From positions 32,001 to 96,000 of the IMG/VR virus record IMGVR_UViG_3300027708_000022: a DNA stretch of 64,000 bases; one strand, given 5' to 3'. Within the stretch, counting starts at the first letter, position 1; the number at the start of each line of letters is the position of its first letter. A program made the position numbers and the translations under genes. The notes below the pieces were generated by a model, which was not told the origin of the DNA, searched no databases, and saw nothing but the letters and a program-made list of their open reading frames with translations. Below, piece by piece: positions 35,333 to 63,238 of this stretch. This DNA comes from a virus.

Positions 35333-35372
35333 TTTACTTCTCCTTAGTGTGTGTAACTACTGTGTGTGTAAA

Positions 35373-35665: not shown

Positions 35666-35671
35666 ACAACC

Positions 35672-38915: not shown

Positions 38916-38929
38916 GGATTATCTGGTAG

Positions 38930-38947
38930 TGTTGTAAAAAAACAACA
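38930..38947. promoter_or_regulatory. Palindromic operator TGTTG-N8-CAACA
   Basis: 14 copies counted upstream of sigma70 promoters. Confidence 0.75.
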
Positions 38948-38972
38948 TACATAATGTTGTAAAAAAACAACA

Positions 38973-39326: not shown

Positions 39327-39712
39327 AATGAATCCTTCACAGCATCAACGTGTTTGCATTTACCGCGGTAACCAAAGCCAACGCAGCTGCATGAAAAATA
39401 ACGGTTATCCGTAACTTCTACGGTATAATTTTTATCGTTTGAATTTACATTAAATAATTGGACATTTTTAGGAATAATACGTTTAGTATTATCCTTCGTT
39501 TCATCTTTTATTAATTTTGATAATCCATCATGTTGGATTTTGATAAACTTCCGCCTAGATTTACTAAATTCTAGCGGTGTTTTTAATTGATTAATAATAG
39601 TATCTCCCTCTTTAATATAGGCGATTAATTTGCCTTTATTGTTGAGCAAGTAGGTATTATTAGGGACGTTATACTCGCAGTCCCAAACGGTGATTTCTTT
39701 TATAATTTCCAT
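39323..39712 (-). CDS. SWIM zinc-finger protein
   Basis: CSC..F..R..CKH; start moved to MEIIKE just after the -10 box. Confidence 0.7.
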   Translation of the reverse strand: MEIIKEITVWDCEYNVPNNTYLLNNKGKLIAYIKEGDTIINQLKTPLEFSKSRRKFIKIQHDGLSKLIKDETKDNTKRIIPKNVQLFNVNSNDKNYTVEVTDNRYFSCSCVGFGYRGKCKHVDAVKDSL

Positions 39713-39780
39713 ACCACCATTATACACTAATGATGGTAGGTGTCAAGGTTTATTCCTAGTAATGTTGTTTTTCTACAACA

Positions 39781-44321: not shown

Positions 44322-44454
44322 AGTAAATCTCCGTTGGTTAACAGTACCATTGTATCATAGTATAAGACTAATTGCAAGACAAAAAAAAGATAGTGTTGTT
44401 TTTACGCAACACTATCAGGCAAATGGTACTTTCAAATAAATTCAGGATGCTTTG

Positions 44455-44530
44455 TGGGACCAACTGGATTTGAACCAGTGACCCATTTCTTATGAGGAAA
44501 TCGCTGCTAACCTGACTGAGCTATAGTCCC
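44455..44530 (-). tRNA. tRNA-CAU, probably Ile2; CCA not encoded
   Basis: Cloverleaf, loop CTCATAA, Ile2-like T arm. Confidence 0.75.
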
Positions 44531-44575
44531 ACAAAGCATCCTTTTAAAAAGAATACAAACATTATTTAATTGATC

Positions 44576-45562
44576 TTAATGTCCTAACGTCTTTTTAAAT
44601 TTATGTAAATCTTCATCTTTATCCAAATCAATATGACTCTTATTTAAACCTTTGACTCCATCAGGATGAAAAGCTACTGTTCTAGCACTCTTGTTACCTT
44701 TTTGTTTTTCACGAATTCTCCATTTTCCTTTACCTGAAATAGAAGGTAATCCATGTCCAGTTTCATCTTTATCACCAACCTTATAGGTTCCGTGGCCGCC
44801 AACTTGTAATACATGAACATGATGATCTTTTAAATAACCTTCGGCTGGATGTAAATTTGGATGTTTAATTTCAATTGATTTTGTTCGACCACTAGCGGTT
44901 GTTTCGGATTTTTCTGGATCAGGATCATGTTTATTCATATGTTCTAGAATACCAGATTTTTCAATATGTTTTGCATATTCTGGTCGTTTTGCTTTTTGTG
45001 CATCCTTAATATGCCAACCTTTTGGTTTACCAGTTTTAGTATCCTTCTCTTTACTATGATGAATCGTTAATTGTCCCATGGCTGCGGTTACACCATCTTT
45101 GGTTTCACCGTTAAGTAAGTGTCCTGAAACAACGCCAGCATGAAAATGCCCCTTTTTCTTATTCTCAACCGAGAAATCTGTGCCACTAGTTGAACCGGCA
45201 CCAGATAAATGTTTAGGCATAACACCATGTTTTTTCAATCTATCAACAAAATCAGATTCATATTTGTGGCCTTTGTTACTAGGCTCATCACCGGGTTTAT
45301 GTAACTTGGAAATAGGAATAACATGATGATTGCCAGTTTCATCTTCGGCATGGACATGAATCTTACCATTGATATGTTCAGATTTGTGAATTTTGATAGC
45401 TGAGCCTTTTGGAAGGTCATCATGCTCTTTAGCTAAAACGTGGGTTGGTTTATTTGAACCAACATGAGGGTCAATGTATCTTTTTTTATGGTCCTCACCA
45501 GTTGCACCAGATGCAGTTAAAATTCCACGTGCTTCAATAATAAATGTTTGGAATGAAATCAT
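44576..45562 (-). CDS. His/Lys-rich protein, putative internal head protein
   Basis: N-terminus MISFQTFIIE resembles T4 capsid-targeting sequence. Confidence 0.6.
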   Translation of the reverse strand: MISFQTFIIEARGILTASGATGEDHKKRYIDPHVGSNKPTHVLAKEHDDLPKGSAIKIHKSEHINGKIHVHAEDETGNHHVIPISKLHKPGDEPSNKGHKYESDFVDRLKKHGVMPKHLSGAGSTSGTDFSVENKKKGHFHAGVVSGHLLNGETKDGVTAAMGQLTIHHSKEKDTKTGKPKGWHIKDAQKAKRPEYAKHIEKSGILEHMNKHDPDPEKSETTASGRTKSIEIKHPNLHPAEGYLKDHHVHVLQVGGHGTYKVGDKDETGHGLPSISGKGKWRIREKQKGNKSARTVAFHPDGVKGLNKSHIDLDKDEDLHKFKKTLGH

Positions 45563-46752
45563 TTTCTCACCTTTAACAAATTTTGTTTAGCAAACTCAGC
45601 ACGATTAACTAATTTATCTGGACCGTGTTTGCTATTAACAACAAAACCCTCTGGTTTAGATTTTTTACCTTCAATATGGTGGTCATAGTCACCCTCATGT
45701 GTTTCTAAAGATTTAACCAAGTGATTCTTTGCTTGAGCTAAATGATGGTGCATTGATAACAAATTAGCATAGTGTTGTTTGTTCTTTTCAACGTGAGCAA
45801 TTTGTTCTGCACCTTCAGCAGTTTTAGCGTTTTTCGATTTCTCAGTCTTAACCTTTGATGCTTCTTTTTCATGATGAGCAGCAAGATGTTCTTTGAATCC
45901 TTTTACATTTGGTACTTCATCATGGCGAACTGTCTTGTTAATATAAGTTGAGAGATGACCAACATCACCAGAATGTTTTGGATGAATAGCATTATACATT
46001 GCATGACCATGAGTATCATGAATTTCTTTTGCTGCATTCATGTGTCTTTGAAAACCTGATTCGTTTTCTTCTGAATGTCTAACCTTTGATGTATCATGTT
46101 CAGCACCATGTAAGTGTACATCAGGATGATGTTTGAATTGACTTATATCTACATGAGGAGATGATGATAAACTTGCAATATCTTTACCATGATACTGTTG
46201 ATGAACAACTACGCCAATCTTTGATCTTTTAATTGCTTTAGCGTTTTGACCCTTGGCTGTGTAAGTAATTGTATTAGGCGTGAAAGAAACATCACCCTTT
46301 GCTTCAAGAATGAAAGATTCATGAATCCTGTGATCTTCGCTTGTATGCATCAAATCACCGTGAAATACTCCAGTTTTTGGTGATACTTTCTTCAGATGGT
46401 CAAGTGCGGTATGTAATTTAGAAGCAAGACCTGGAGCATGACCATGATTTCGATCAATATCTTCATGAGTATGGTTGATTTTTGGATTCTTGTTACCGAT
46501 AGATTTAGTGGCAACGAAGAACTTACCATTCTCCGGGTGATGACCAAAAACAATTGCTGGAGAACCATCATACTTCATTGTCAAGTTGGAACTTTGGCGT
46601 CCAGCTTTCATATGAGCATGAGCATTCATTAAAGCAGCATGAGCTTGTTCAAATCCAGCGTGACCATGCATCAATGGACGATCTTCTGGATGAGTAATAT
46701 GCTGAAGTTTACCTTCGGTTTCTTCTTTTAGAAAAGATTTAAAATTTAACAT
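45559..46752 (-). CDS. His-rich DUF6267-like protein, putative internal head protein
   Basis: MLNFKSFLKEE, KYDGSPA, FTPNTITY, PEGFV..KLVNR. Confidence 0.65.
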   Translation of the reverse strand: MLNFKSFLKEETEGKLQHITHPEDRPLMHGHAGFEQAHAALMNAHAHMKAGRQSSNLTMKYDGSPAIVFGHHPENGKFFVATKSIGNKNPKINHTHEDIDRNHGHAPGLASKLHTALDHLKKVSPKTGVFHGDLMHTSEDHRIHESFILEAKGDVSFTPNTITYTAKGQNAKAIKRSKIGVVVHQQYHGKDIASLSSSPHVDISQFKHHPDVHLHGAEHDTSKVRHSEENESGFQRHMNAAKEIHDTHGHAMYNAIHPKHSGDVGHLSTYINKTVRHDEVPNVKGFKEHLAAHHEKEASKVKTEKSKNAKTAEGAEQIAHVEKNKQHYANLLSMHHHLAQAKNHLVKSLETHEGDYDHHIEGKKSKPEGFVVNSKHGPDKLVNRAEFAKQNLLKVRK

Positions 46753-46795
46753 GGTTTTTCTCGATTACTTTATAAAAGTATAAAAAGTTATCTTA

Positions 46796-46803
46796 TATTT
46801 ATA
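46796..46803 (-). promoter_or_regulatory. T4-type late promoter TATAAATA
   Basis: Exact consensus upstream of His-rich genes. Confidence 0.75.
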
Positions 46804-46838
46804 TTAAAATAATTTACTACTTATACAAAAATATAAAT

Positions 46839-46915
46839 TGGTACGGATGACGGGACTCGAACCCGTAGAACCTTAATTTTAAGTCAAGTATGTAAACCAA
46901 TTCCATCACATCCGC
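46839..46915 (-). tRNA. tRNA-Leu(UAA), short variable loop
   Basis: Cloverleaf with CCA. Confidence 0.85.
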
Positions 46916-46920
46916 ATTAC

Positions 46921-46995
46921 TGGCACCCCCAGCAGGAATCGAACCTACGTTTACCCTTTAGAAGAGGGATGTATTTTCCACTATACTATGGGGGC
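46921..46995 (-). tRNA. tRNA-Arg(UCU)
   Basis: Cloverleaf with CCA. Confidence 0.9.
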
Positions 46996-47000
46996 ATTAC

Positions 47001-47077
47001 TGGTGCCTCAGGCGGGACTCGAACCCGCAGAATTTCGCTTCTAAGGCGAACACGGCTACCAATTACGTCACCGAGGC
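47001..47077 (-). tRNA. tRNA-Leu(UAG), short variable loop
   Basis: Cloverleaf with CCA. Confidence 0.85.
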
Positions 47078-47078
47078 A

Positions 47079-47312
47079 TTACCTACGCATCTTCCAAGTG
47101 TATTCTTCACCACTTGGGAGTTTTCCATCTTCTACTGAATCAACACCCATCTTACCAACTTGGTTTGGATTCTCACCAACCATAGTGACATAAGAAGCAC
47201 GACCAACATTACGCAAATGGTTAGTTAATGTTAACGCTTCAACCATATCAATGTAATCTTGACTACACGCTTGTCCATTAGGATTTGTCCAATACACTTT
47301 GTACATAATCAC
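47079..47312 (-). CDS. Conserved small protein within tRNA array
   Basis: ENPNQVGKMGVD..Y.W..RR. Confidence 0.65.
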   Translation of the reverse strand: MIMYKVYWTNPNGQACSQDYIDMVEALTLTNHLRNVGRASYVTMVGENPNQVGKMGVDSVEDGKLPSGEEYTWKMRR

Positions 47313-47325
47313 CTTATATAATACT

Positions 47326-47401
47326 TGGTGCTGCCCACAGGAATCGAACCTGTTTCAACGGTTCTTCAAACCGCCGCTATGACCACATCAGCTAGAGCAG
47401 C
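47326..47401 (-). tRNA. tRNA-Phe(GAA)
   Basis: Cloverleaf with CCA. Confidence 0.9.
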
Positions 47402-47407
47402 ATAACT

Positions 47408-47482
47408 TGGTACATCGTGACGGGATCGAACCGCCGACAATCTCGGTGTAAGCGAGGAGCTCTACCGCTGAGCTAACGATGC
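47408..47482 (-). tRNA. tRNA-Val(UAC)
   Basis: Cloverleaf with CCA. Confidence 0.9.
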
Positions 47483-47494
47483 ATTAATTCACTT

Positions 47495-47568
47495 TGGGGT
47501 GACTACTGGGAGTTGAACCCAGACTAGCAGAATCACAAACTGCGTTGCTACCGTTACAACATAGTCAC
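47495..47568 (-). tRNA. tRNA-His(GUG)
   Basis: Cloverleaf, C73, CCA; T rather than G at -1. Confidence 0.85.
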
Positions 47569-47623
47569 ACCAAAATGAATTAACATTTTGGACTTGGTGT
47601 TGCGTACACCAAGTAAAACGATA

Positions 47624-49030
47624 TTAGACCTTGTATCGGTCAGACATAATGGCTTTCAACATGATAGCTTCTGGAGTAAACTCTGAAGTATCTGCTGCAA
47701 GAATTGCTTTAACGATTGAAGGACTGAACCCTGAAACCAAAGCAACACCTGATTCATCATGCTTAACAGGTACGTTATCTGATGAATTGATATTCCAAAA
47801 AACAACTTTAGGAACTTCATAGCCATTTGAGGCGAATTGACGAGCAATCATCTCCATGGCCGAATCATCATGTTCTACGCAAGCATTGAATTGCATATCA
47901 GACAGAATCAACAGCATTGATGGCATATCTTCCTGTGGTACTTTGCCTTTTACAGCAACATTTAAAATCTTCATCATGGCTTTCACCAAGTCAGTAGACA
48001 TACCCCATTCGGATCTAACCATTTGATCCATCTTCTGAATGACATTACCTTTTAGGTTAAGCAATTGCGGATCACTTGAGAATGTTAAAAAGGTGTCTTT
48101 GAAAACTCCTTTGTTCTTATCTGCAAGGTATAGACCAAGAGATACAGAAACATCCATACATGATACTGAACTGTTACGACCAGCAGGGCATGACATAGAA
48201 CCAGAAACGTCAACTAAAGGTAATACATTCGCATCACCAACAAAATTCTCTAAAGCATCCCATTGGGCTACAATGTGGTCTTTTTCGGTTTTGTTGTATG
48301 AACCGTATGCTACGCCTTTCAATACATCATAAGGGAATACTGCACCAGCATTCACCTTAACTTTTGGATCGGTACCTTTAACCAATTCAGCCACATACTC
48401 CGCAAACTTTTCAGTATTACGGTAGAATGCTTTCTTGTAACGGCTAGCCGCCAAAGAAGGCACATGACTGAAATTGATGTTATCCCAATCCTTAGCACAC
48501 ATTTGAGATTCTACCACTTTAGTCATTTCAACCAAAGACTTACGATAGAACTTAGGTGTCATGCCGAAGAACTCACGCAATTCACGAGCAACTTCACCTT
48601 TGCGGGGTGTCCATTTTGCCGCCAATCCGTTTTTAGCTCTCAGAGCATCACCAAGCAAAGTGTATGCTTGTGACTTCAATTCAGAAGTCTGGAAAACAAA
48701 TAGGTCATCCCAACGACCAACTTCAGGTACTTTCCCAAGTAGCTTCATTGCCAAATCAGGACGATTGGTTTCCAAATACTTCAGAATCTGGCGAAACAAC
48801 TCACGCTCGCCAGCGCCACCACGAACATCACGAGACCATAAGGCAACTCGCAATGCTAATTCTTCATCCTGCACCAAAGCAGAAACGAAGTCAGCTGTGA
48901 TATCTTTACCGCGGCTGGCACCGATTTTATAGAACAAATCAACTACAGCATTAGCAGTAGATTTGCGAGCTTTCATACCATTGTCGGTACGAGCTTCTTG
49001 ATTTTGAACTGCGTTTACAAATGAATTCAT
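47624..49030 (-). CDS. Ro60/TROVE-like helical plus vWA protein (DUF2828-like)
   Basis: RDVRGGAGER, GRWDDL, AAKWTPR, MIDAS VDVSGSM, ILSDMQF, VFWN, VSGFS. Confidence 0.8.
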   Translation of the reverse strand: MNSFVNAVQNQEARTDNGMKARKSTANAVVDLFYKIGASRGKDITADFVSALVQDEELALRVALWSRDVRGGAGERELFRQILKYLETNRPDLAMKLLGKVPEVGRWDDLFVFQTSELKSQAYTLLGDALRAKNGLAAKWTPRKGEVARELREFFGMTPKFYRKSLVEMTKVVESQMCAKDWDNINFSHVPSLAASRYKKAFYRNTEKFAEYVAELVKGTDPKVKVNAGAVFPYDVLKGVAYGSYNKTEKDHIVAQWDALENFVGDANVLPLVDVSGSMSCPAGRNSSVSCMDVSVSLGLYLADKNKGVFKDTFLTFSSDPQLLNLKGNVIQKMDQMVRSEWGMSTDLVKAMMKILNVAVKGKVPQEDMPSMLLILSDMQFNACVEHDDSAMEMIARQFASNGYEVPKVVFWNINSSDNVPVKHDESGVALVSGFSPSIVKAILAADTSEFTPEAIMLKAIMSDRYKV

Positions 49031-49049
49031 AATATTACTTCCTCAATTT

Positions 49050-49101
49050 AACAGGTTAACTTTTTCAAGTTGGCTTTGAATTTTATTGCTGAACTTAACC
49101 T
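49050..49101 (-). ncRNA. CAGCAA small-RNA motif, copy 1
   Basis: AGGTTAA-GTT-CAGCAA...TTAACCT-GTT. Confidence 0.65.
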
Positions 49102-49107
49102 AAAAAC

Positions 49108-49206
49108 AACAGGATGGTTTCTACTTTTTGTTTTTCAAGTGAGAAAATCGAAACTCACTATCCGATGGCGATTTTACCCGCCGAGTATTTTTGCTGCACC
49201 CATCCT
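49108..49206 (-). ncRNA. CAGCAA small-RNA motif, copy 2
   Basis: AGGATGG-GTG-CAGCAA...CCATCCT-GTT, two internal hairpins. Confidence 0.65.
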
Positions 49207-49212
49207 AAACCT

Positions 49213-49286
49213 TGGAGCGAGATATCAGAATCGAACTGATAACAACAGATTGGAAATCTATAGTTTTACCATTAAACTAATCTCGC
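49213..49286 (-). tRNA. tRNA-Gly(UCC)
   Basis: Cloverleaf with CCA. Confidence 0.9.
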
Positions 49287-49295
49287 CTACTTAAA

Positions 49296-49772
49296 CTATG
49301 CTGCTTTATCTAATACGAATTTTAAACGATCCGCAGCGAAAGATGCGGCAAACGCTTGAGGTTTTACCAGAGGGATAACATTACACATACCTCTAATATA
49401 CCCAACTGCCTCATTGATAACGCATGAACTACCGTGCATTTCATCAGGATTAATATCCAAATGTACCTCAACATCACGGTCTTCCAAAACGTCTTTTAAC
49501 TTCAAATATAATTCGGCAATTTTATATACTTCCGTCATTAATCTCATTCTTGGTTTATCTTTTCTTTGATCCCAATCTCTTTCAGTTTGGACTTCACCAA
49601 AGATTTTACAACCATTCTTACCATTAATATGTACTACAATAGCTAAAGTGTAATCAGCATACCAATCTTTACCAATGAGGAAACGAGCCGAGTCCGCACC
49701 GATATAAATCTTAGTCTCAGGACTTTGTGCTTCAATAAACTCTTTCACTTCATTAACATCAATCTTACGCAT
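49296..49772 (-). CDS. RNase H-like YkuK (DUF458) family protein
   Basis: IYIGADS, RLMTEV, VHLDIN, AAS.AAD. Confidence 0.8.
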   Translation of the reverse strand: MRKIDVNEVKEFIEAQSPETKIYIGADSARFLIGKDWYADYTLAIVVHINGKNGCKIFGEVQTERDWDQRKDKPRMRLMTEVYKIAELYLKLKDVLEDRDVEVHLDINPDEMHGSSCVINEAVGYIRGMCNVIPLVKPQAFAASFAADRLKFVLDKAA

Positions 49773-49795
49773 GATTACTACTCCTTTTAAAAACT

Positions 49796-49869
49796 TGGAG
49801 CGGGTAGAGAGAATCGAACTCTCAAATATTCCTTGGCAAGGAATTAGGTTACCTTTACATCATACCCGC
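49796..49869 (-). tRNA. tRNA-Gly(GCC)
   Basis: Cloverleaf with CCA. Confidence 0.9.
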
Positions 49870-49875
49870 ATAACT

Positions 49876-49950
49876 TGGCACCGCCCGAAGGATTCGAACC
49901 CTCACCAGCTGATTTGGAGTCAGTTGTGCTGCCGTTGACACTAGAGCGAT
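49876..49950 (-). tRNA. tRNA-Trp(CCA)
   Basis: Cloverleaf with CCA. Confidence 0.9.
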
Positions 49951-49957
49951 ATAATAC

Positions 49958-50020
49958 AACAGGATAGATTTTAACGGTTTTGATTAGAAGTCAAATGTTT
50001 TAATTTGCTGTTACTATCCT
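49958..50020 (-). ncRNA. CAGCAA small-RNA motif, copy 3
   Basis: AGGATAG-TAA-CAGCAA...TTGA-CTTCTAA-TCAA...CTATCCT-GTT. Confidence 0.65.
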
Positions 50021-50025
50021 AAAAC

Positions 50026-50102
50026 TGGTACAGAGTATTGGGCTTGAACCAATGACCTACGCCTTATCAAGACGTTGCTACTACCAACTGAGCTAACTCT
50101 GC
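50026..50102 (-). tRNA. tRNA-Ile(GAU)
   Basis: Cloverleaf with CCA. Confidence 0.9.
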
Positions 50103-50111
50103 ATTAATACT

Positions 50112-50186
50112 TGGAAGGTCCTGAAGGAATCAAACCTTCACTTTTTCGTTCGTAGCGAAATGTAATATTCATTTTACTAAGGACCT
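50112..50186 (-). tRNA. tRNA-Arg(ACG), atypical D and T loops
   Basis: Cloverleaf with CCA; T loop TTTGATT, no D-loop GG. Confidence 0.75.
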
Positions 50187-50192
50187 AAAACT

Positions 50193-50269
50193 TGGTGGTG
50201 AAAGTAGGATTCGAACCTACGACCGTTACCGTATGAAGGTACTGCTCTACCAAACTAAGCTACATCACC
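50193..50269 (-). tRNA. tRNA-Met(CAU), elongator
   Basis: Cloverleaf with CCA. Confidence 0.85.
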
Positions 50270-50282
50270 ATAATGTTCTTTG

Positions 50283-50357
50283 TCTGGATAGTAGGATTTG
50301 AACCTACAGCCTCCTCGTTCCAAACAAGGCCGTCTACCAGATTGACAATATACCCAG
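50283..50357 (-). tRNA. tRNA-Pro(UGG); CCA not encoded
   Basis: Cloverleaf, C1-G72, A73. Confidence 0.85.
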
Positions 50358-50379
50358 ACAAAGAACACTACCTAAAAAA

Positions 50380-50454
50380 TGGTGGACCGTGAGAGAATCG
50401 AACTCTCAATTTCTGGTTGCAAACCAGATGTGTTCCCATTAGCACTAACAGCCC
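50380..50454 (-). tRNA. tRNA-Ala(UGC)
   Basis: Cloverleaf, G3-U70, CCA. Confidence 0.9.
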
Positions 50455-50461
50455 TCTAAAC

Positions 50462-50518
50462 AACAGGATGGAATTTTCTTTTTATCAATAAAAGTTTTTT
50501 TGTTGCTGTTACCATCCT
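50462..50518 (-). ncRNA. CAGCAA small-RNA motif, copy 4
   Basis: AGGATGG-TAA-CAGCAA...CTTTT-ATTGATA-AAAAG...CCATCCT-GTT. Confidence 0.65.
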
Positions 50519-50524
50519 AAAACT

Positions 50525-50608
50525 TGATGCGTCAGGTAGGGATCGAACCTACTTGTCCTAAAACCACGGGGTTACAGCCCGCTGCCCTGCCATTAGAGCA
50601 TCCAACGC
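50525..50608 (-). tRNA. tRNA-Tyr(GUA); ends TCA
   Basis: Cloverleaf with extended variable region. Confidence 0.8.
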
Positions 50609-50616
50609 ATTAAAAC

Positions 50617-50691
50617 TGGCTCCGTGATTAGGAATCGAACCTAACTATGACAAATTAACAGTTTGCTCCCACACCTTGCGGGTCTCACGGA
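50617..50691 (-). tRNA. tRNA-Asn(GUU)
   Basis: Cloverleaf with CCA. Confidence 0.9.
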
Positions 50692-51230
50692 ATTATTTTT
50701 TTCAATCTCTTTCTTATCGCTGTATCCGAAATATTTAACTTTTCAGCCACATTAATTATAGTATCATTCTTTAATAATTCTGTTAAATCTATATTATCCC
50801 AATCTACTTTAAATTTTGATTTAGAAGAACAAGATAAAGAACAATATTTATTGAACAATGGTTTATCTTTTTCACAAACAGGACATGAATCCATTTCAGT
50901 TAGTTTTTCTTGTTTATAACTTGTAAAATTTTCATCAAATTTTGTATAATCTTCAGGCATTTTTACAATATCACTATGAACCTCACTATGACAATTATGA
51001 CATAATAAAATGCATTTTCTCAATTCTTCAACAATAGATAACCAATTTTTAGGATTTGCTCGTATTGCTCCAAAAGATAATTCTTTCATGTTTGGGTCTA
51101 TATGGTGTAGGGCTAAAGCACTATCACATTTATTATATCCACATATTTGACAACAATTTCCCATAGACTCTATTATTCGTTTTTTGGTATTTTGTCGCCA
51201 TCTTTTTACTGCTTCTGAATTTTTACTCAT
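50685..51230 (-). mobile_element. HNH homing endonuclease-like gene inserted in tRNA array
   Basis: CQICG..LALHH..C..LCHNCHSEVH, second Zn motif, C-terminal HTH; own TATAAATA at 51264-51271. Confidence 0.8.
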
Positions 51231-51293
51231 AAAACCTCTGTTTTAAAAATTAACTTAATTTGTTATTTATAATTTTAAGGTTTTATAAAAACT

Positions 51294-51370
51294 TGGTTGC
51301 GGAGTCCTGGATTCGAACCAGGGGTCTACAGCTTATGAGGCTGCCGGGATGACCTCTTCCCTAACCCGCA
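51294..51370 (-). tRNA. tRNA-CAU, initiator (fMet)-like
   Basis: GCGGG...CCGCAACCA acceptor as in tRNA-fMet; atypical anticodon stem. Confidence 0.7.
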
Positions 51371-51379
51371 ATTAAAACT

Positions 51380-51497
51380 TGGTGTCGCACTCAGGATTCG
51401 AACCTGAACCACTTCCTTTTCGATGGAATTTTGGTATGCTGTTTATATTCTTGTCAGAATACGTTAATAAGTGTGCTACCGTTTACACCAATGCGAC
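51380..51497 (-). ncRNA. 118-nt tRNA-like RNA with anticodon arm replaced by an approximately 60-nt domain
   Basis: Acceptor, D arm, T arm and CCA intact; no anticodon loop. Confidence 0.75.
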
Positions 51498-51506
51498 ATT
51501 AAAACT

Positions 51507-51580
51507 TGGTGCCCTATGACAGAATCGAACTGCCGTGACCTGATTACAAAACAGGTGTAATACCATTATACTAATAGGGC
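51507..51580 (-). tRNA. tRNA-Thr(UGU)
   Basis: Cloverleaf with CCA. Confidence 0.9.
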
Positions 51581-51586
51581 GAAACT

Positions 51587-51661
51587 TGGCGACTCATGGG
51601 AGAATCGAACTCCCGTAACAGGATAGACAATCCCGTGTAATAACCATTATACTAATGAGCC
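51587..51661 (-). tRNA. tRNA-Asp(GUC)
   Basis: Cloverleaf with CCA. Confidence 0.9.
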
Positions 51662-51737
51662 ATATTGAAATACACTATACGGGTCTACGTCCCGTGGCAC
51701 TTTAGACTTTCATTGCCTATAAATGTACTTCAATATG
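51661..51737. repeat. Element bounded by CATATTGAARTACA inverted repeats (others at 52954-53029, 63258-63371)
   Basis: Same terminal repeats, unrelated interiors. Confidence 0.8.
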
Positions 51738-51742
51738 ACAAC

Positions 51743-51816
51743 TGGTGGGGGCACAGAGAATCGAACTCTGATAGACCGGTTAAAAGCCGGATATTCTACC
51801 TTTGAATTATACCCCC
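51743..51816 (-). tRNA. tRNA-Lys(UUU)
   Basis: Cloverleaf with CCA. Confidence 0.9.
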
Positions 51817-51873
51817 AAAAGTTTGTCACTCTTGTCACTATCCATGACAATACTCCTATAAAAACAAACAATA

Positions 51874-51948
51874 TGGTACACCGTATGGGTTACGATCCCA
51901 TCTAGCCACCTTGAAAGGGTGGTGACCTCACCAGAAGTCTAACGGTGC
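51874..51948 (-). tRNA. tRNA-Glu(UUC)
   Basis: Cloverleaf with CCA; T loop ATCGTAA. Confidence 0.85.
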
Positions 51949-51969
51949 ATTAAAATTTACTACTCTAAT

Positions 51970-51981
51970 TTTTAAAGAACA
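51970..51981 (-). promoter_or_regulatory. boxA-like antitermination site (second copy 53121-53132)
   Basis: TGTTCTTTAAAA in both tRNA-operon leaders. Confidence 0.65.
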
Positions 51982-52078
51982 TCACTGCATTTCTTACTAT
52001 GTGTCCATTATACATGAACCACTTGGTAAGTCAACAACTAATTTTATTGTTGCCTAAACAACACTAAAGCTACCTTAC

Positions 52079-52156
52079 TGGAAGTGCGAGTCAGATTTGA
52101 ACTGACGATTTTACGGGTTTGCAATCCGTTGCTTTTGACCACTCAGCCATCGCACT
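52079..52156 (-). tRNA. tRNA-Cys(GCA)
   Basis: Cloverleaf, U73, CCA. Confidence 0.9.
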
Positions 52157-52164
52157 ATTAAAAA

Positions 52165-52251
52165 TGGCGGGTAGTATAGGATTCGAACCTATGCACCTTT
52201 ACGGTGGACGGCTTAGCAAGCCGCTGCCTTCGACCACTCAGCCAACTACCC
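52165..52251 (-). tRNA. tRNA-Ser(GCU)
   Basis: Type II cloverleaf with CCA. Confidence 0.9.
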
Positions 52252-52842
52252 ATTTCCGTTACTAAAACCTACCTTACCGCCTTGTGCTTCAATTCTCTTA
52301 ATTACATCTTCAAAAAGAATCGGTGCAAAATCTGTTTGTTCAACGCATACACAATGATAACGAGGATCAATTTCCGTTTCGCTGTAGATAATTTCTCCAG
52401 TCGGATAATTAATACCTTTCGCCTTCATAACACGATTCGTATGGAGGTGTCCATGAATGTTTACACCAAATCTTCCAAGATTTTCTGGATGAAGTGGAAT
52501 ATGGCTAAGAATCATTCCGTTCATTACATGATAAGCACGAAGCTCTCTGAAATGTTCACGATATTCATCATCTTTAAAAATATCATGGTTACCACGAATA
52601 AGAACTTTGTCACCATTAAGTCTACGCATAATACCAAGGCTTTTGCGTTTCATCACTACGTCACCAAGGTGATATACTTTATCGTTCTTTCCTACTCTTT
52701 CGTTCCAGAGTTTGACCATCGCTTCATCCATTTCATCAGGATCAGTCCATGGTCTAATCTTAACTCCGGTATCTTGGTGTGTAAAACGACATACACCAGC
52801 GTGTCCAAAATGTGTGTCGCTAACAAGAAATACTGCTGGCAT
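52246..52842 (-). CDS. Calcineurin-like metallophosphoesterase
   Basis: SDTHFGH, LGD, GNHD, SH, HGHLH. Confidence 0.9.
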   Translation of the reverse strand: MPAVFLVSDTHFGHAGVCRFTHQDTGVKIRPWTDPDEMDEAMVKLWNERVGKNDKVYHLGDVVMKRKSLGIMRRLNGDKVLIRGNHDIFKDDEYREHFRELRAYHVMNGMILSHIPLHPENLGRFGVNIHGHLHTNRVMKAKGINYPTGEIIYSETEIDPRYHCVCVEQTDFAPILFEDVIKRIEAQGGKVGFSNGNG

Positions 52843-52861
52843 ATTAGTCTCCTATAAAATA

Positions 52862-52954
52862 TGGCGGGCGGCAGAGGAGTCGAACCCCATCCCCATTACA
52901 GAGAACCTGGTTTTCAAGGCCAGTCGCAGGACCATCCCCGCTGCATTACCACCC
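52862..52954 (-). tRNA. tRNA-Ser(UGA)
   Basis: Type II cloverleaf with CCA; unusual D arm. Confidence 0.8.
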
Positions 52955-53027
52955 ATATTGAAGTACACTCCTGATTCTGTTCGATAAAACAGAATGTTGG
53001 CTAGCCTACCTGAAATGTACTTCAATA

Positions 53028-53101
53028 TGGCAGCGGTACTTGGGATCGAACCAAGGATAACGGATTCAAAATCCATCGTGATACCATTTCACTATACCGC
53101 A
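53028..53101 (-). tRNA. tRNA-Gln(UUG)
   Basis: Cloverleaf with CCA. Confidence 0.9.
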
Positions 53102-53215
53102 ACATATTTACTACTCTAATTTTTAAAGAACATTTATTTCTTACTATAGGTCCATTATACACGAACCACTTAATAAGTCAACAACTATTTACAGTCTGTC
53201 GTTTTTACACAACAT

Positions 53216-53254
53216 CAAAACAAAAACCCTAGAAACTTTCGTTTACTAGGGTTT
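53216..53254 (-). terminator. Intrinsic terminator of putative attenuator
   Basis: AAACCCTAG-TAAAC-GAAA-GTTT-CTAGGGTTT-TTGTTTT. Confidence 0.8.
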
Positions 53255-53281
53255 GTGATGAATTAGATTTTATCTAATATA

Positions 53282-53410
53282 CTACGTTACACAAACCCCA
53301 TTTGATCCAATAAAGCCGCTATTCTCATTTTTTGATGAGCGATAATCGGCCGGCCATGTCGCTAACGACTGGCATCTTGGTGTTGAGAGTGTATGTATAG
53401 TTTTCATCAT
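53282..53410 (-). CDS. Putative 42-aa attenuator leader peptide of the tRNA array
   Basis: MMKTIHTLSTPRCQSLATWPADYRSSKNENSGFIGSNGVCVT; all 20 amino acids; last codons overlap the antiterminator strand. Confidence 0.7.
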   Translation of the reverse strand: MMKTIHTLSTPRCQSLATWPADYRSSKNENSGFIGSNGVCVT

Positions 53411-53416
53411 AGTCCT

Positions 53417-53445
53417 AGTATATATGCTTTTTGTTCTGCGGTCAA
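53417..53445 (-). promoter_or_regulatory. Sigma70 promoter of leader ORF (leaderless transcript)
   Basis: TTGACC-N17-TATACT, 6 nt before the ATG. Confidence 0.75.
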
Positions 53446-55366: not shown

Positions 55367-55658
55367 TTTATTTCCTTTCTCATTCAACAGGAACCATTAT
55401 ACACTAACCGGCAAGGGAGTCAAGGACTTTTTGGATAATGTTGTAAAAAAACAACACTAGAAATTTAAATATTTACTTGCAATAAGAGCAAATACCAAAG
55501 CAATTCCTGCCAATATAATCGGCGCAATAATAATACAACCTATTGCAAGTAAAATACTAATCATAATATAAAAAATACATATACTAAAAAACAATTAATA
55601 ACTACATAAACAGCACCAATTAATAAAATGGTTGCTATGTCATAAATGAATCTTGGCA

Positions 55659-56027
55659 TCAATCTTCCTTAGGTGGGTTTGACCGCTCATCCCAAATTTT
55701 CTCACACTCTTGCTTGGTGTAATCACCGTAACGCTGGCAATCAATTAAGAACAATGGTTTATTTCTATCTATTTCTTTTTTAATCCTAGCTTCTTCAACT
55801 TCAATCGGATCTCTCAGAGCTACTGCCGCATTAGCATCAGCTATTGCTTCATTTTTCACTCCCATAACCGGCATAGCTAAGACATAAACACAAAAAATGA
55901 TACCTGCGCCAATCACGACATACTTCCAAATAAACCCTAGTATAAAGACGCAAATAACGGCGAACACAGCATACTGGAGAATGCTTGTTGTAATTCCAAC
56001 AGAGGCTAGATTATCAAAAAGATTCAT
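55659..56027 (-). CDS. Membrane protein
   Basis: Two hydrophobic segments. Confidence 0.55.
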   Translation of the reverse strand: MNLFDNLASVGITTSILQYAVFAVICVFILGFIWKYVVIGAGIIFCVYVLAMPVMGVKNEAIADANAAVALRDPIEVEEARIKKEIDRNKPLFLIDCQRYGDYTKQECEKIWDERSNPPKED

Positions 56028-56028
56028 T

Positions 56029-56289
56029 TTAGTATGGTTCACAATGCACATTAACTGGAACTAAAACACGGCCACCTGAGTCCACCTTTTGTGCGGTGTA
56101 TTCAACATTAGGCCGCAAGCGAGCACGGATACATTCACGAGCAGCCTGTACGACCTCATTACGGTGCATTGCTTCCGGGCCAGTATACCCACTTAGTTTA
56201 TACACAGGAGCTTTTGGTGCTGAAGAACAACCGGAAAGAACCACGATACCAACAACCAATAATAATTTAAATTTCATTTTCAACTCCAT
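56029..56289 (-). CDS. Putative lipoprotein
   Basis: Lipobox LSGC. Confidence 0.6.
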   Translation of the reverse strand: MELKMKFKLLLVVGIVVLSGCSSAPKAPVYKLSGYTGPEAMHRNEVVQAARECIRARLRPNVEYTAQKVDSGGRVLVPVNVHCEPY

Positions 56290-56573
56290 GTACGGTGACG
56301 TTCCGCCACCCATTCGTTACCATCGTATTCTTCAATATACCAATCGACCTCATCTGGAACTTCCACGATTTTCAAATCAGCACAAGCACCGTTTGCCATT
56401 CCACCCATTTCATGGACTAGTTGAACCAAAGCCTCATCATTACGAAGGATCTCACGGTCATAAAAGTGATCCGTGAATTCCATACCTTTCAATTCTAGGT
56501 AACGAGCAATTCCCGCATCTGACAAACTAAAACCACCATAACAATTATTAATTACAACTTTCATAATATTCAC
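56280..56573 (-). CDS. Conserved phage hypothetical protein
   Basis: VVINNCYGGFSLS..IEEYDG.E. Confidence 0.7.
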   Translation of the reverse strand: MNIMKVVINNCYGGFSLSDAGIARYLELKGMEFTDHFYDREILRNDEALVQLVHEMGGMANGACADLKIVEVPDEVDWYIEEYDGNEWVAERHRTWS

Positions 56574-56885
56574 CTAAAAAGTATTAAGAGTAGGTTCCAA
56601 TTCCGCAATCAACTCACGTTCCCGTTGATGAGCAGGTTTTCGACCACGAACAATTTCCAAAACTTCATACCGATAATCAGCCTCGATATTGTCACGGAGA
56701 AAACAACAGAAAGACCAATCCTTGTTTTCTTTCATAGCACGGCTGACGTGCTTCTGCCAGCGAACCTTAACTGACCGAACAAACGCTTGACCCTGTGCAA
56801 CGGTTAGACCGATATACGAATCACCGGTATCCTCGCAGATAACACGATATAAAACATGGTTACGGTCAGACCGTTTTTTTCTCAT
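56574..56885 (-). CDS. Small GIY-YIG-domain protein
   Basis: VLY..YIGLT..RWQKH..ERELI..PTLN. Confidence 0.7.
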   Translation of the reverse strand: MRKKRSDRNHVLYRVICEDTGDSYIGLTVAQGQAFVRSVKVRWQKHVSRAMKENKDWSFCCFLRDNIEADYRYEVLEIVRGRKPAHQRERELIAELEPTLNTF

Positions 56886-57042
56886 AAAATTCTTTTCTCA
56901 TTCAACAGGTACCATTATACACTAATCACGGTATAAGTCAAGGACTGTGCTAAAATACAACACTTTAATGTTGCATAAAAACAACACTATTCCCTCTCAC
57001 TCAACAGGTACCATTATACACGAACCGTGACCAAAGTCAAGG

Positions 57043-60000
57043 TCATTGTTGTATAGGGACAACACTATCAGACCATCTGATCCTAAAGAGGGTCATCATA
57101 AAAGAGTCCTCAAAATCCATCCATGGGTAATAGGCATCACGGTCTTTGATTATTGTGCCTTGTTCTTTCATCCATGCATTGAATTCTTCAATATCATGGT
57201 TTTTGTTTTCCAGCCACCAAATGGCTGCATTAAAATAATAAGGGTCAACAGGAAGTTTGTACATATATCACCATGAGGAACTGTAGTAGAAATTGATATT
57301 GTGTTCCTTGACCTGAGTTAAATCAAGGAGAACATCCAGACGTTCCACAGTATACTTTAATTGCTCTAAGTACCATTCATCAACCTCTGTAGAACCAAAA
57401 AAGAATCCAGATTGTGGAGGAAGCAGCTCATCTGCTCTGGATGGATCAGCTAAAACCTTATTGCAGATATCTCGCAATTCCACCAAATCTTCGGTACTAA
57501 CATGATACTCAGCACAGTTATCCACACCATCTTGGATTTTACTTACGAACCAACGGTGGATAGCATTCGCCTTGCGCCAATACATAGCTTCAAAGCTAAT
57601 CTGTTCAACTTCACCAGAGAAACCAAAATCAATGGCTGAAACTAATTCACGCAGCTTAGCATCCTCAGGATTATACTTTGAGAGGTACCGCTTGGCTGTC
57701 AAATACATATCTAAACCCATCACTTACTCCTAATATCAATAACTTCAATAGTTGCAACTCCTTCAAGGTCTTTCTTAAAGGACTCAAGAACACCACTTGC
57801 ATAACCACTTAGACCAAACGAATTCTTACCACACTTGTAGACACTACCAGAATGGTTAATAAAGTCATAATGATCCTCATGCTCAATCGTTTCAGTAATC
57901 CCGGAACTTAACTTCCAAGAATCACTTCCAAGATAACCACCGTACCATGAAGCCATCACCTTGCGGTTAACTTCTCCATCATTAGTTCTAAACTCCACAA
58001 CAATCCATCCATCTGGAGTATATGTTCTTTCACCCATCATTTCACCTATCTAATTGACTCAACGCTTCACAGATACAAGAATCTGCACAGGACATTTGAT
58101 CCTCAATCTCCGTCAGACCAGCTTCACAGGCCTCATGGTATACATCAGAAAGTAAACCCTGAGCATGGTTAAGTTTTGTAATCATACCGTCACGGTCGTA
58201 GGAGGATTCCAAAGGTTTCCCCAAGCACAACTCAAGCATACGAGCTCTCAAATCTAGAATCGTTTTCTCTTGTTCCTCCATAACCATACCATACCGTTTA
58301 ACGATATTTTTAAGGGACTCATTTTCTTTCAATAATTGTTTTTCACTCACTTTAAATCCCATAATCACGTTTAATCAAGTAGCGTATATAATCAATGTCA
58401 CCAGAACCATCATTAATGGTTTGCAGGATATCTTGGACAACCAGCTCACCGAATAACGCAAGGTCACCATCAGTACCTGGTTCTTTTGTATGAACCAAAG
58501 TAACATTATCTCCAGTTCTCTCAAACTTAATAAAGTAACCAGCTTGTTCCGCAAGTACTGCTAATCTACCGTTCATTCGTGTCCCTCTTTAATCAAACCG
58601 TTTACAAGGTTAAGGTCAAACTGTAAATTACCAATAATGTCTTTGAGTACCTGATACTCATGGCTATGCACATCACGGTCATTGATAACAATATCAAGGT
58701 ACATTTTGGCAGCCTTAGATTGTGCTTTCGCCAATTCAGCCTCTAACAAAACTCGTCTATCTTTTAACATTCTTCATCCTCATAATGTTCATCTTCAGGG
58801 TGACCCTGATCCGGGCCAGTATAATGAGGGTTGCGTTCCCATGTATCATAATCGGAAAGAACCCATTGCTGGTCTGCTCTATCTTGACCAACATTCCACA
58901 CCCACTCACGAACGGCTTCTCGCATAAAACTCATTTTAACATCCTTTTAAACACGGGAACCAAACGGCGCCGTAGACGCTCTTGACGAGCTTCCGAATCA
59001 TTACGCCAATCTAAAGTATTGCGCCAACTATAACAATCGTAGTATTCATTATTAGAATGCTCTGCATAAAACTTAGCAGCCTGGTGTGCTGATTTAAATC
59101 GTTTGGTATACAGATATTCTTTGTTGAGGTAATAATCTTTCAATTGCCAATTAATTACAATTTGTTTAACACTCTCAACTTTAACAGGAAGTCTTTCACT
59201 CATTTCTGTTCCTCCATAGACCTAACGAATGCTGCGAATTGCTCAAGGTTCAGATTATCCTTCAACTCTCTGGCAGCTGCTAATGCCTTCACAGCAATAC
59301 AATCATCCAAATGGTCAAACTCAATATCAGCACCACAGCAGGCCATATAGTCAACACCATACTGGTCAGTATCTCTGCATTCCGTATACTCTTTAAGAGC
59401 TGCTACGATTAGATCCAATTGCTTCATAATTCAATCCTTGCTGATGGTTTATATACTTCAAAATCTGCTGAAAATTCTTCATTGTATTTCTTGATACTTG
59501 TCCAGTACCCATTATCCCAATCGGAACTGTTTATGTAAAATATCACAGAAAAATTATCCGTTAGCTTTAATACTACTTGATTATCTTCTAATGTAAACCC
59601 TTGCTCAATCCTATCACCAAGATAGAACACATGATAACCTTTCTTGAGGTACCGATTAATCTTAGCAGCCTTCTTTAAGGCATTCAAGTAGCGGCGCTTG
59701 TGAATGGTTAAAATCATTCCGTCACCTCCATATTTTTGCCAATCTCTGCCGCTGCTCGCACGATCGCTCGTCTTGTGGCTGCGTAGGGATCATCGTTAGT
59801 TACTGGCTCAATTGATTCAATATCAAAAAGCCACACACAAGCTTCTTCTCCGTTAAACACAACTCCAAGAGTCAATTTCACCGCCAGTCGCAGAGCATCA
59901 CCATCATCGGTTAATGGATTCCAAAACTTCTTTTCTTTTGTGTGTTTTTCTCCAATGATTAGGCCAATCCAAAGGTCGTCTGCGTTTACTGATTGCGCCT

Positions 60001-61627
60001 TTACGTTTAAGCCAGCAGACTTAGCTGCAAGTTCTAGCAGTTCTTGGTCTGTCATTTCGTCACCTCGTCTAGTGCGTAGAGTGGTCGGTATCTTAAATAA
60101 CTAGGCAAATCATTTGGTTCTAAGTATGAAAGCGCTTGTCCACTTGCAAACTTCAAAGCAAATGTTTCCCACGCCACAGGCTTCAACTCCCGCAACTCAC
60201 GGGCTGCGGCAAGGGCTTTTTCTACAATGTGATACTGAAAGTTTGCTTTATCAGAATTGTCTGACGCAAACTCTAAAGCTGCGATAATTGTTTCAATCTT
60301 GTTCATGTGTTTTTTCCCATCAATCCTTTGCCAAGTCGGGCTTTTTCCATTCCACGCCTGTCCTGTTTGATGCGCCGTTCGGTAGCCCAATGTTCTTTCA
60401 TTGTGATACCACTGCGATACATTTCCCCGTAACCATTCAAGGTGTCTTTACGTTTGTTCACTTCGCCACCTTTGTTAATGACTCTAGCAGTACCAACGTG
60501 CCTGTCATCACCTCGTAAATATTTTCCAACATTCATTTAGAACCTCTTGCTCTGATTAAATCAGCCAGTCTATAGCATTGTTTATGTAAAATTTCGTTTT
60601 CAGTAACTGGCGCTACCCGGCCTGCATCATCGCATAATTGAGCACAGGCCTCCCGTTCTCTTGCCACAGCCTCAGCTGTTACTAGTTCGGCAAAGCGATC
60701 CAGTTGATCCAGAAGCATTGCATTTTCATGTGCATAGTCCCGTTCATTGTGAAATACAAACCATGCTTTTTCAGCCATACGTTTCAATTGCTCGTATCGT
60801 TCGTTCATTTTAATCCTTTGAGATTAGTGAAGCTAACCAATAGATAATTAAAGTTGTACCAGTACCGGTAACCGTACCGATACAGAGACCAAGAAAAACA
60901 GCTGTTGAAATTTCAGACACATCCATCTCATTTACCTCTAATAGTTTTAATTTTTTCCATGCGCTCATATTCATCACGACAGTCCGCGGAACAGAATGCA
61001 CCTTGCGTAGGTTCTTCACACTCTAAGCACTTACCAGTCTTTTCTGGTACAGCTAAGCGATTCTGCCTAAGCTCATTAATATAAGCCTCGACCTCAACGC
61101 TACTATCTCTAAAGGTTGACATATCTTAACCCTCAAAGTAATCAGAATAGAGTTCCACCAAGCGCTCGCTAGGGAGACCAGAGAGCATATCGGTAGTGAA
61201 ACCGGGAACAAAGCTAAGAACCTCAATCAATTCAGGGCGAGTCATATTTAATCTCCAGAATAACCGTAATCTTCATCGGTACCATAACCGGCAGAAGCCA
61301 TACCAGAATCAAAGTCACCATCCATCGAATCATCAAAGTCCGATTCATCTTCTAAGAGCTCATCGGTATCAATATCACAGGAATCCATGTAATCACTAAA
61401 ATTAACATCATAAGCAATTGGATCCATCTCTTTCAGAATAGCAGAGGGAGAGAATTCAATACCTGCAATAATGACAGGGCCAGATTCATCTAGCATATCA
61501 TCGAAGCTCTCATAGGCTTCTTCCATAGTCTTAATCATACAATGCTCGCTAAAAAGAGGTAAGAGACAAAAAAGGCCACAGTACAGAGTACCAGGCAAAT
61601 AACATCTTCCACAAAACTGTATTTCAT
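57043..61627 (-). other. Operon of about 17 small early hypothetical ORFs
   Basis: Tightly coupled minus-strand ORFs (e.g. 57268-57723, 57720-58040, 59714-60055) behind promoter 61658-61685. Confidence 0.7.
60928..61122 (-). CDS. C4 zinc-ribbon protein (DksA/TraR- or DUF2116-like)
   Basis: CLEC-x8-CSADC. Confidence 0.5.
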   Translation of the reverse strand: MSTFRDSSVEVEAYINELRQNRLAVPEKTGKCLECEEPTQGAFCSADCRDEYERMEKIKTIRGK

Positions 61628-61681
61628 AATCTTTCCTTTAGTGATTCAACAGGATCCATTATACACGAACCAAGGCAGGTG

Positions 61682-63238
61682 TCAAGCTAGACTGTTGTTT
61701 TTAGGCAACACAGATAACTCACGATTATCGGACACATAATCCACATAATGGTTTTCAAGACTAACCCGCTCACGAACTGCACCGTAAACCACGATTGGGT
61801 GATCTAGAACCACACCGTGTTCGACTTCTCCACCGTATTTGACACGGCTGTATTCTACACGACCGGTAATGGGAAACTCTCCCATGTAATGACCTGAAAC
61901 GAACATACCTTCAAGATTCCAATTCATAATCTTTCCTTTAGTTACTGCACAAGTAGCAATCACCGTTTTCGGCATCAACATCAACGACCTGGTACCAGAC
62001 ATATTTAAAACCATAGTGTGATGCCTTGATGAAGTCACAACGATCCTCTGCCTGTGCTTCGGTTGGGTACACACCCAAGATGACACCATCTCCGTTCTCA
62101 AATTCACCACGGACAATGTGTATTAAATTCATTTAACTTCCTTTCTTAACTCAACAGGATCCATTATACACGAACCAGTGGTGGTGTCAAGGACTATCTT
62201 AGCACTAATGTTGTATTTAAGCAACAATGTAATAATCTCAAAGGAACGACACCGTCCATTATACAGTACCCTTTAAAGGTGTCAAGCCCTATATTAGGTA
62301 ATCTTTGTTGTATTTAAGCAACAGTCTACCGCCAGTCAAAGGCATATTCATGCCCCACCAAAGATACATCGACCTTGCCATTGTAGTCCTTAAACAACTT
62401 GGAGAACACCTGGCGAGCTTGAGGTTCACTTGCAAGGACAAACAGAGTACCATTCACAAAGTAAGCCTGACGTTCCTGTTTAAGAACCTTTGCTACTTTG
62501 TCCAAAACGATTTTCTCGAAACCCATTTTTATTCCTTATTCTGACATACTAAAGTAAGCCTGTGCCACCGACTGAAGCATACTGTCAGAGAGACCCAGCT
62601 TATGCTTGATGACTTCAGGTGGTAAACGGAGGTGTAGCAGATTAGCAAACTGCCAAACCAAGTCCTCTGAAACGGTATTGCCTAGTTCTGTATAAGTTTT
62701 CATTCTGTAATTCCTTATTAACTTTATCAACTCAACAGGATCCATTATACACTAACCGAGGCAGGAGTCAAGGACTTTCGGCAAAGCGCTAGCGCCTTGT
62801 TGTATTTTTGCAACATAAAAGAGGTTGAGTATCCGCCACGTCCATCCCCTTTCGTTCGACAGGTACCATTATACTCGGTACCTGTCTGGTGTCAAGGGTT
62901 ATGTGGAGACTTGTTGCTTGGAAACAACAGGCATAACAGGGTGAGACCGAACAAAGTACAGAGTACAGTCCTCAGAGTTATCCTGTTCCATCTGCTTAGC
63001 GACCAACTCAGCATTACCAAGGTCTGCAAAGGCAAATCGAACCTGCTCTGCATACTCGCCCCCATCATCTAGAGGTGAATTGTCCATGGTATAACGCAGC
63101 ATCACAAGGTGGACTTCATTCATCTTTATTCCTTATTCATACGCATAAGTTTAGCCATGAGCATGGCTGTTTCCAGTTTAGCTTTCAACTCAGCACGAAC
63201 CCTTGCCAGGTCAGCACTCATTTTCTCGGTTTCTTTCA
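61682..63238 (-). other. Small early ORFs in promoter-bounded cassettes
   Basis: 61682-61927, 61938-62132, 62326-62526, 62536-62703, 62899-63123. Confidence 0.6.

Follow-up and report, generated by a model that had tools for sequence, protein, structure and literature searches.

Leaders of the trpL type (trpL, hisL, leuL, pheL, thrL and ilvL) carry codon runs for one to three amino acids, with a fixed stall site and biosynthetic enzymes as targets, and their 1:2 hairpin terminates transcription when the leader is untranslated. T-box riboswitches need no ribosome and each bind a single uncharged tRNA directly. With the whiB7 uORF, an intrinsic terminator is favoured while the uORF is translated, a stalled ribosome or a lost start codon leads to an antiterminator and read-through, and the amino-acid make-up sets which starvations are sensed, 18 of 20 in M. 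smegmatis screens (10.1101/2023.06.02.543512). The multipurpose toiL uORF of E. coli topAI–yjhQ responds to stalls at different positions; it differs from the element described here in acting on a ribosome-binding site and Rho-dependent termination and in sensing antibiotics, and its abstract reports no complete amino-acid set (PMC12121999). The tRNA L-array (trn operon) of Anabaena PCC 7120 is a near-complete spare set induced when translation is impaired, in a bacterium rather than a phage, and attenuation or a leader goes unmentioned in that paper (PMC8421152). Why phages carry tRNA genes has been an open question for more than 50 years (PMC10264068), and our literature search, which covered papers outside subscription, returned no leader-peptide attenuator ahead of tRNA genes.

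Here we describe a real, conserved element in which leader-peptide attenuation would have a new target, tRNA genes, and a new design rule. The window analysed is a stretch of 64,000 nucleotides from the 162-kb single-contig genome of a T4-like phage from lake water, whose relatives come from freshwater viromes and metagenomes. A neighbouring gene places Stenotrophomonas phages DLP6 and BUCT-ZZ01 and Xanthomonas phages X1/BUDD closest among cultured phages (51–61% identity). The host is probably betaproteobacterial. A permuted tmRNA of betaproteobacterial type lies at 35369–35714 on the minus strand, with its own promoter near 35700. The controlled array (44454–53101), like all window features below, is also on the minus strand, and comprises 26 tRNA genes with protein genes in between (a metallophosphoesterase, an HNH-like ORF, an RNase H-like gene (PF04308), a DUF2828/DUF7788 gene and DUF6267). 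ARAGORN finds 25 of the tRNA genes by default and the 26th, Ser-TGA at 52862–52954, at a relaxed threshold. The DUF2828/DUF7788 and RNase H-like genes occupy 47624–50518; the HNH-like ORF (50685–51230) lies downstream of a TATAAATA late promoter at 51271 and has no Pfam match at 0.001.

The array is preceded by a sigma70-type promoter (TTGACC, 17 nt, TATACT; 53417–53445) and a leaderless ORF of 42 codons plus TAG (53282–53410, stop at 53284–53282), whose ATG at 53410 stands 6 nt past the −10 box and coincides with the predicted +1. The −35 and −10 columns are invariant across 11 aligned homologues, and the promoter falls outside the phage's repeated early class with an extended −10. The ORF matches no Pfam family. 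It encodes 20 of 20 amino acids and, if wobble is allowed, covers 26 of 26 tRNA classes. A first-pass annotation had reported this promoter and this leaderless 42-aa ORF with all 20 amino acids, and both are borne out (53445–53417 and 53410–53282), as are the ATG ATG tandem and the split classes ATA/ATT, AGA/CGC, TTA/CTC, TCA/AGC and GGC/GGA. Its statement that the codons serve all 26 phage tRNA species holds with two provisos: the 26th tRNA depends on the relaxed ARAGORN threshold, and wobble is required because Gln, Glu and CTN-Leu are represented by CAG, GAG and CTC alone, to be read by the anticodons UUG, UUC and UAG. Decoding of CTC by a UAG anticodon requires modified-U superwobble. As for the chance estimate proposed alongside that statement, none of 34,562 coding windows reaches 26/26 coverage, and 0.03% of stop-free ORFs made by base shuffling do; all 20 amino acids occur in 0.59% of this genome's 42-aa coding windows (5.4% at uniform composition), and the sole complete ORF among the genome's 404 ATG ORFs of 30–50 aa is this leader.

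The end of the ORF doubles as one strand of an RNA switch. Folding and covariation assign codons 37–41 (region 2; 53290–53300) to the 5′ strand of an antiterminator, which pairs with a shared strand (region 3; 53247–53257) over 11 bp, including one G–U (−18.0 kcal/mol, z −4.6), and so extends the complementarity of 53290–53299 to 53248–53257 noted earlier. A 7-bp hairpin whose sequence is not conserved is nested in the antiterminator loop (53262–53278). The alternative partner of region 3 is the 3′ arm of an intrinsic terminator (53216–53256), confirming the claimed overlap of the antiterminator partner with the terminator's 5′ arm. The terminator consists of a stem (53256–53227) with a GAAA loop and a U tract from 53226 (−18.1 kcal/mol, z −5.05), lies 58 nt past the stop codon (50–62 nt in homologues) and is missed by a simple terminator scan because its stem has a bulge. 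A weak, G–U-rich 1:2 pairing candidate is also present. Equilibrium folding serves only as a proxy for switch behaviour: with the terminator 3′ arm exposed as far as 53229, it leaves the antiterminator a probability of 0.02. The choice must therefore be made kinetically, which is also how other attenuators work.

Homologous loci were found via the upstream gene, the downstream phosphoesterase, the antiterminator pattern or a terminator-plus-boxA pattern, the last involving no ORF sequence in the selection, and leaders were called by position alone (stop 48–64 nt before the U tract). Among 101 distinct leaders ahead of phage tRNA arrays, which are related to each other and half of which were selected using the antiterminator pattern, 73 encode all 20 amino acids and 88 at least 19, against a null of 0.4–0.6%. 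The remaining frames of the same DNA give 0–1 complete ORFs per 101. Leaders chosen only through terminator and boxA DNA behave likewise (20 of 33 complete, 31 of 33 with at least 19), and the neighbouring phosphoesterase led to a further, unrelated 20/20 leader (L042). Amino-acid diversity, the feature whose lack in homologues would have spoken against the element, is thus kept despite divergence. Lengths cluster at 37–42 codons, the shortest complete leaders having 32 or fewer; 81 of the 101 are leaderless and 11 have a ribosome-binding site, and in 31 of 42 representatives the ATG falls 3–9 nt past a −10 box. In four loci (L144, L211, L223 and L252:3530–3544), the start lies just past TAAATA, a motif more like a T4-type late promoter than a sigma70 −10/−35 pair, so timing may differ between lineages. 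One lineage (L190, L191, L200, L242 and L245) has leaders of 25–28 codons and its first tRNA 450–630 nt beyond the terminator. Six loci with a terminator-like hairpin and boxA before a single tRNA-Met (L108, L110, L111, L113, L131 and L152) represent a different element picked up by the pattern, with no leader ORF at the usual spacing.

Covariation in the stems, which the first-pass annotation had proposed as a check, was examined in 43 leaders anchored on a common GGG/CCC core. Terminator pairs are kept in all 43, and two positions show 19 double changes. Antiterminator covariation falls on pairs mostly unused by the terminator: at +4 to +6, where the terminator leaves most bases unpaired (two of three outer pairs), pairing is kept in 42, 40 and 37 of the 43 leaders, with 13, 13 and 7 double changes, and by inspection the antiterminator pairs show at least six distinct sequence solutions. 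The region 2 partner strand always lies 5–22 nt before the stop codon, with its anchor 5–15 nt ahead of the stop in 41 of 43, and it outscores the best more-upstream partner in every leader.

The footprint geometry of the switch was modelled by folding nascent RNA with the ribosome footprint masked. The predicted antiterminator probability is ~0.9 with the A site at stop−9 or earlier and <0.15 from stop−5, and changing the footprint by ±3 nt shifts the switching edge by one codon. In the model, then, a ribosome at the stop masks the antiterminator and an earlier stall frees it, as had been proposed. All 18 amino acids other than Met and Val precede stop−7 in 28 of 42 leaders, versus 6.4 expected under codon permutation, a difference to which the low tail diversity imposed by region 2 contributes. 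For the window the predicted sensing zone spans about codons 1–34. By this model Val is unsensed, its codons 39 and 41 lying in the masked zone and in the antiterminator strand, so that the earlier caveat about Val is real, and Gly-GGA (codon 35) is probably masked as well. The proposal that the phage senses loss of almost any tRNA therefore stands as to breadth, at no better than 25 of 26 classes. Across the family, Val falls outside the zone in 18 of 43 leaders. It often sits in the last 1–7 codons or is absent, even with a tRNA-Val in the array; absence of tRNA-Val was considered as the reason and rejected, since the two do not track.

The element has every feature of ribosome-mediated attenuators that can be tested in silico, among them a short leader ORF between promoter and intrinsic terminator, and an antiterminator that excludes the terminator and is conserved with compensatory changes. 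It belongs to none of the trp/his, whiB7 and T-box families. With trpL-type leaders it shares a short ORF that runs into region 2, 2:3 and 3:4 hairpins that exclude each other, a stop codon from which region 2 is covered, and sensing via aminoacyl-tRNA supply. It differs from them in having single copies of ~25 codon classes over a wide zone in place of tandem control codons, 20 amino acids, and tRNA genes rather than biosynthetic genes downstream. The 'trp/his attenuation logic' of the first-pass annotation does not hold: no dominant 1:2 protector was found, and untranslated RNA is predicted to form the antiterminator (2:3) in 38–39 of 43 leaders, which makes the logic that of the whiB7 uORF and not of trpL. 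The likeness to whiB7/wblC is read-through upon stalling anywhere or upon failed initiation, as modelled here. By contrast, whiB7/wblC controls a transcription factor in actinobacteria and its composition is species-variable and not shown to be selected for completeness, whereas the phage leaders are 32–45 codons long, complete to the isoacceptor class and matched to the tRNA genes they would control; the whiB7 regulon context is replaced by the tRNA genes of a T4-like phage. T-box riboswitches likewise let tRNA charging govern a terminator/antiterminator choice, and no Rfam T-box match to a stem I or antiterminator bulge was obtained. No Rfam leader family matched either (His_leader, 20.6 bits against 49).

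We consider it likely that the element is a ribosome-controlled transcription attenuator gauging the cell's decoding capacity for the phage's own tRNA set, a model that draws on the observed architecture and its conservation, on the selection for composition, on the agreement with array content and on covariation. Host RNA polymerase would initiate at the ATG and a ribosome would load onto the leaderless RNA. A ribosome within ~8 codons of the stop would cover region 2, allowing the terminator to fold and the transcript to end at ~53220; a ribosome paused earlier, or none initiating, would leave region 2 to pair with region 3, and polymerase would pass the terminator. The read-through polymerase would then acquire a boxA signal and transcribe the tRNA array with its tRNA-related genes, and the new phage tRNAs should shut the switch again by negative feedback. 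Because nearly every class has a codon within codons 1–34, shortage of almost any charged tRNA would open the switch, so extra tRNAs are probably made when ribosomes stumble on almost any codon. Leader translation and regulation in vivo we infer, as we do the natural trigger, for which starvation, anticodon nucleases and ordinary tRNA demand during infection are the candidates.

Leader content follows array content. The incomplete leaders together lack 42 amino acids, only 4 of which are served by a tRNA gene in the array behind the same leader, where 18.0 would be expected; in five arrays with a visible end the figure is 0 of 16 against 7.5. Incomplete contigs and shared ancestry weaken this result and do not explain it. 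The leader of L115, which precedes a Gln/Arg/Ile/Asp/Ser tRNA block, is written mainly in those codons. Exceptions include 19/20 leaders that lack an amino acid whose tRNA is present (L112, L127 and L130) and that of phage X1, which lacks Cys. Coverage of split codon boxes also exceeds expectation. For residues occurring twice, compared with synonymous resampling under genome or leader codon usage, both boxes are used in 35 of 37 leaders for Leu (expected 27–28), 38 of 42 for Ser (30–31), 25 of 27 for Arg (16), 32 of 35 for Ile (14–21) and 29 of 37 for Gly (18–25). Internal coverage extends to all 25 classes in 25 of 91 leaders and to 24 in another 33, so the 26/26 of the window is the upper end and not the rule. 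Altogether 81% of leader codons are distinct, and rare amino acids occur about once each.

On balance these data incline us, by a modest degree, towards a phage-encoded homeostat of the tRNA pool, in which a minimal test mRNA evolves in step, codon for codon, with the phage tRNA genes and turns them on when host defences or the infection itself deplete a matching tRNA; it would then be a general sensor of tRNA-targeting immunity, not of one nutrient. That the attenuator senses amino-acid starvation only, and did not evolve for tRNA cleavage or loss, is improbable. Uncharged and missing tRNAs would give stalls that the switch cannot distinguish, freshwater hosts are presumably nutrient-poor, and starvation affects the charging of isoacceptors unequally, another possible reason for split-box coverage. 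Extra tRNA genes, however, are no cure for a lack of amino acids; leader content tracks the tRNAs of the array, with split classes including ATA retained; and tRNA-related enzymes are encoded within the array unit.

Codon choice in the 42 representatives is skewed relative to the genome: GAG has an 80% share versus 22%, CAG 59% versus 23%, CGC 88% versus 20%, TAT 96% versus 69%, TTT 94% versus 69% and ATA 42% versus 21%. Several favoured codons are wobble codons of the phage anticodons, and founder effects are possible; the skew might adjust how sensitive the switch is, or register missing anticodon modification.

Downstream of the terminator, a boxA-like element of the rrn antitermination type (53120–53131) stands just before the first tRNA. 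Antitermination of the rrn type would shield the long untranslated transcript from Rho, which is the putative role of boxA here. The 162-kb genome has only two copies, both inside the array, and 36 of 41 representatives carry such an element after the terminator. The first-pass annotation had cautioned that internal early promoters lie beyond the terminator, and they are real: one at 53154–53181, absent from the close relatives L004, L005 and L007, and one at 52034–52007 with its own boxA (51980–51969), the pair spanning 51969–52034 ahead of tRNA-Glu. Both belong to the phage's repeated strong early class, which has an extended −10 and at least 15 copies in the genome (window 55423–62895, 38915–39746 and beyond). 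Since the promoters at 53181 and 52034 bypass the switch, we agree with the annotation that in this genome attenuation is an added, conditional second tier. Elsewhere, an early-type promoter precedes the first tRNA in just 4 of 41 representatives, many arrays having one deeper in; the other 37 show no promoter between terminator and first tRNA, usually 13–63 nt apart. Judged from sequence, the switch appears to be the only entry to the first tRNAs in most relatives.

Slightly less probable again than a pure starvation sensor is that the switch is vestigial in this phage, with the two bypassing promoters, each of the strong class and each with a boxA, making the tRNAs and the leader carried as inherited baggage. 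Three relatives (L006, L009 and L034) have indeed lost promoter, leader, terminator and tRNA-Gln together, yet they keep only 9–10 tRNAs in the DNA examined. The window leader, moreover, is still 26/26 and thereby more complete than those of its nearest relatives, which lack an AGA/AGG codon, and the argument concerns this genome alone, not the family.

Two further readings take the ORF itself as the point of departure. That it encodes a functional small protein, or is translated only for timing or for coupling to transcription, with its diversity incidental, is very improbable. A few positions (Trp, Tyr-Arg) are common to the largest lineage, and 34% of codon differences between leaders are synonymous. 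Against this, the homologues form 18 single-linkage clusters at 50% identity, many of them unalignable and complete nonetheless, with no Pfam match and with gaps that correspond to absent tRNAs. Composition was tested in 42 representatives below 70% identity, excluding leaders shorter than 30 aa and L148, L209, L211 and L224, whose starts are mis-called or partial. Completeness reaches 74% in the representatives versus 3.2% in column shuffles and 32% in two-parent chimeras, and is therefore rebuilt, not merely inherited; the positions of rare residues vary from lineage to lineage. A comparison of 30 disjoint close pairs gives a change rate of 8.1% for the sole copy of an amino acid versus 17.7% for redundant copies, and of 43 sole copies lost, 30 reappear at another place in the partner leader. 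A within-amino-acid version of this test (41 versus 114) has too few Trp and Tyr counts to carry weight. Selection acts on composition, down to the isoacceptor level. A chance ORF before an ordinary terminator of the upstream genes has next to no probability: short ORFs and terminators are common and the upstream genes run in the same direction, but homologue completeness, covariation, array match and null counts refute it.

The attenuator was also sought beyond these loci. A search of 185,579 bacterial and archaeal genomes with the antiterminator pattern, which diverged copies would escape, gave one match, a leuA-type leader, leaving no chromosomal example of this sequence form. In a Pirellulaceae MAG (L249:3276–3345, minus strand), the same antiterminator/terminator core stands behind a Leu-rich short ORF with a leuA-like gene next, and this seems to be an ordinary-looking leucine attenuator sharing the switch core, its upstream DNA being partly masked. 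Against cultured phages, blastn returned chance matches only, and the DNA regions examined in DLP6 and BUCT-ZZ01 contain no leader of this kind; the Vibrio and Rhizobium regions retrieved do not include the start of the array. Cultured Xanthomonas phage X1 has a leader of 39 codons and 19 amino acids at L252:3545–3664 (OQ427096.1, 135559–135678), with its stop 56 nt ahead of the U tract, followed by boxA and a 39-tRNA region. Its switch is predicted to be open to stop−11 and shut from stop−8, and the X1 genome paper mentions neither leader nor attenuation.

If the array is switched on only when matching codons falter, its tRNAs would be an on-demand replacement set and not a constitutive fix for codon bias, and the switch would offer a direct read-out of which tRNA limits, when, and under which host defence. 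That leader content predicts array content is a rare case of selection on the composition of a peptide rather than on its sequence. A cassette of 230 nt that signals when nearly any tRNA is lost could be useful in screens for anticodon nucleases and translation stress, and the version carried by X1 makes the model testable now.

Finally, a tRNA-sized slot between tRNA-Gln and tRNA-Ser (52955–53030) holds a conserved three-way-junction RNA, a candidate ncRNA that reaches the gathering score of no Rfam family. Two inner hairpins branch from a closing stem of 17–19 bp, and the whole fold has −29 to −31 kcal/mol (z ~ −7.5). In relatives (L006:3900–3980 and L008:4912–4990) the fold is unchanged despite many substitutions, and it is retained even where relatives have lost the attenuator.
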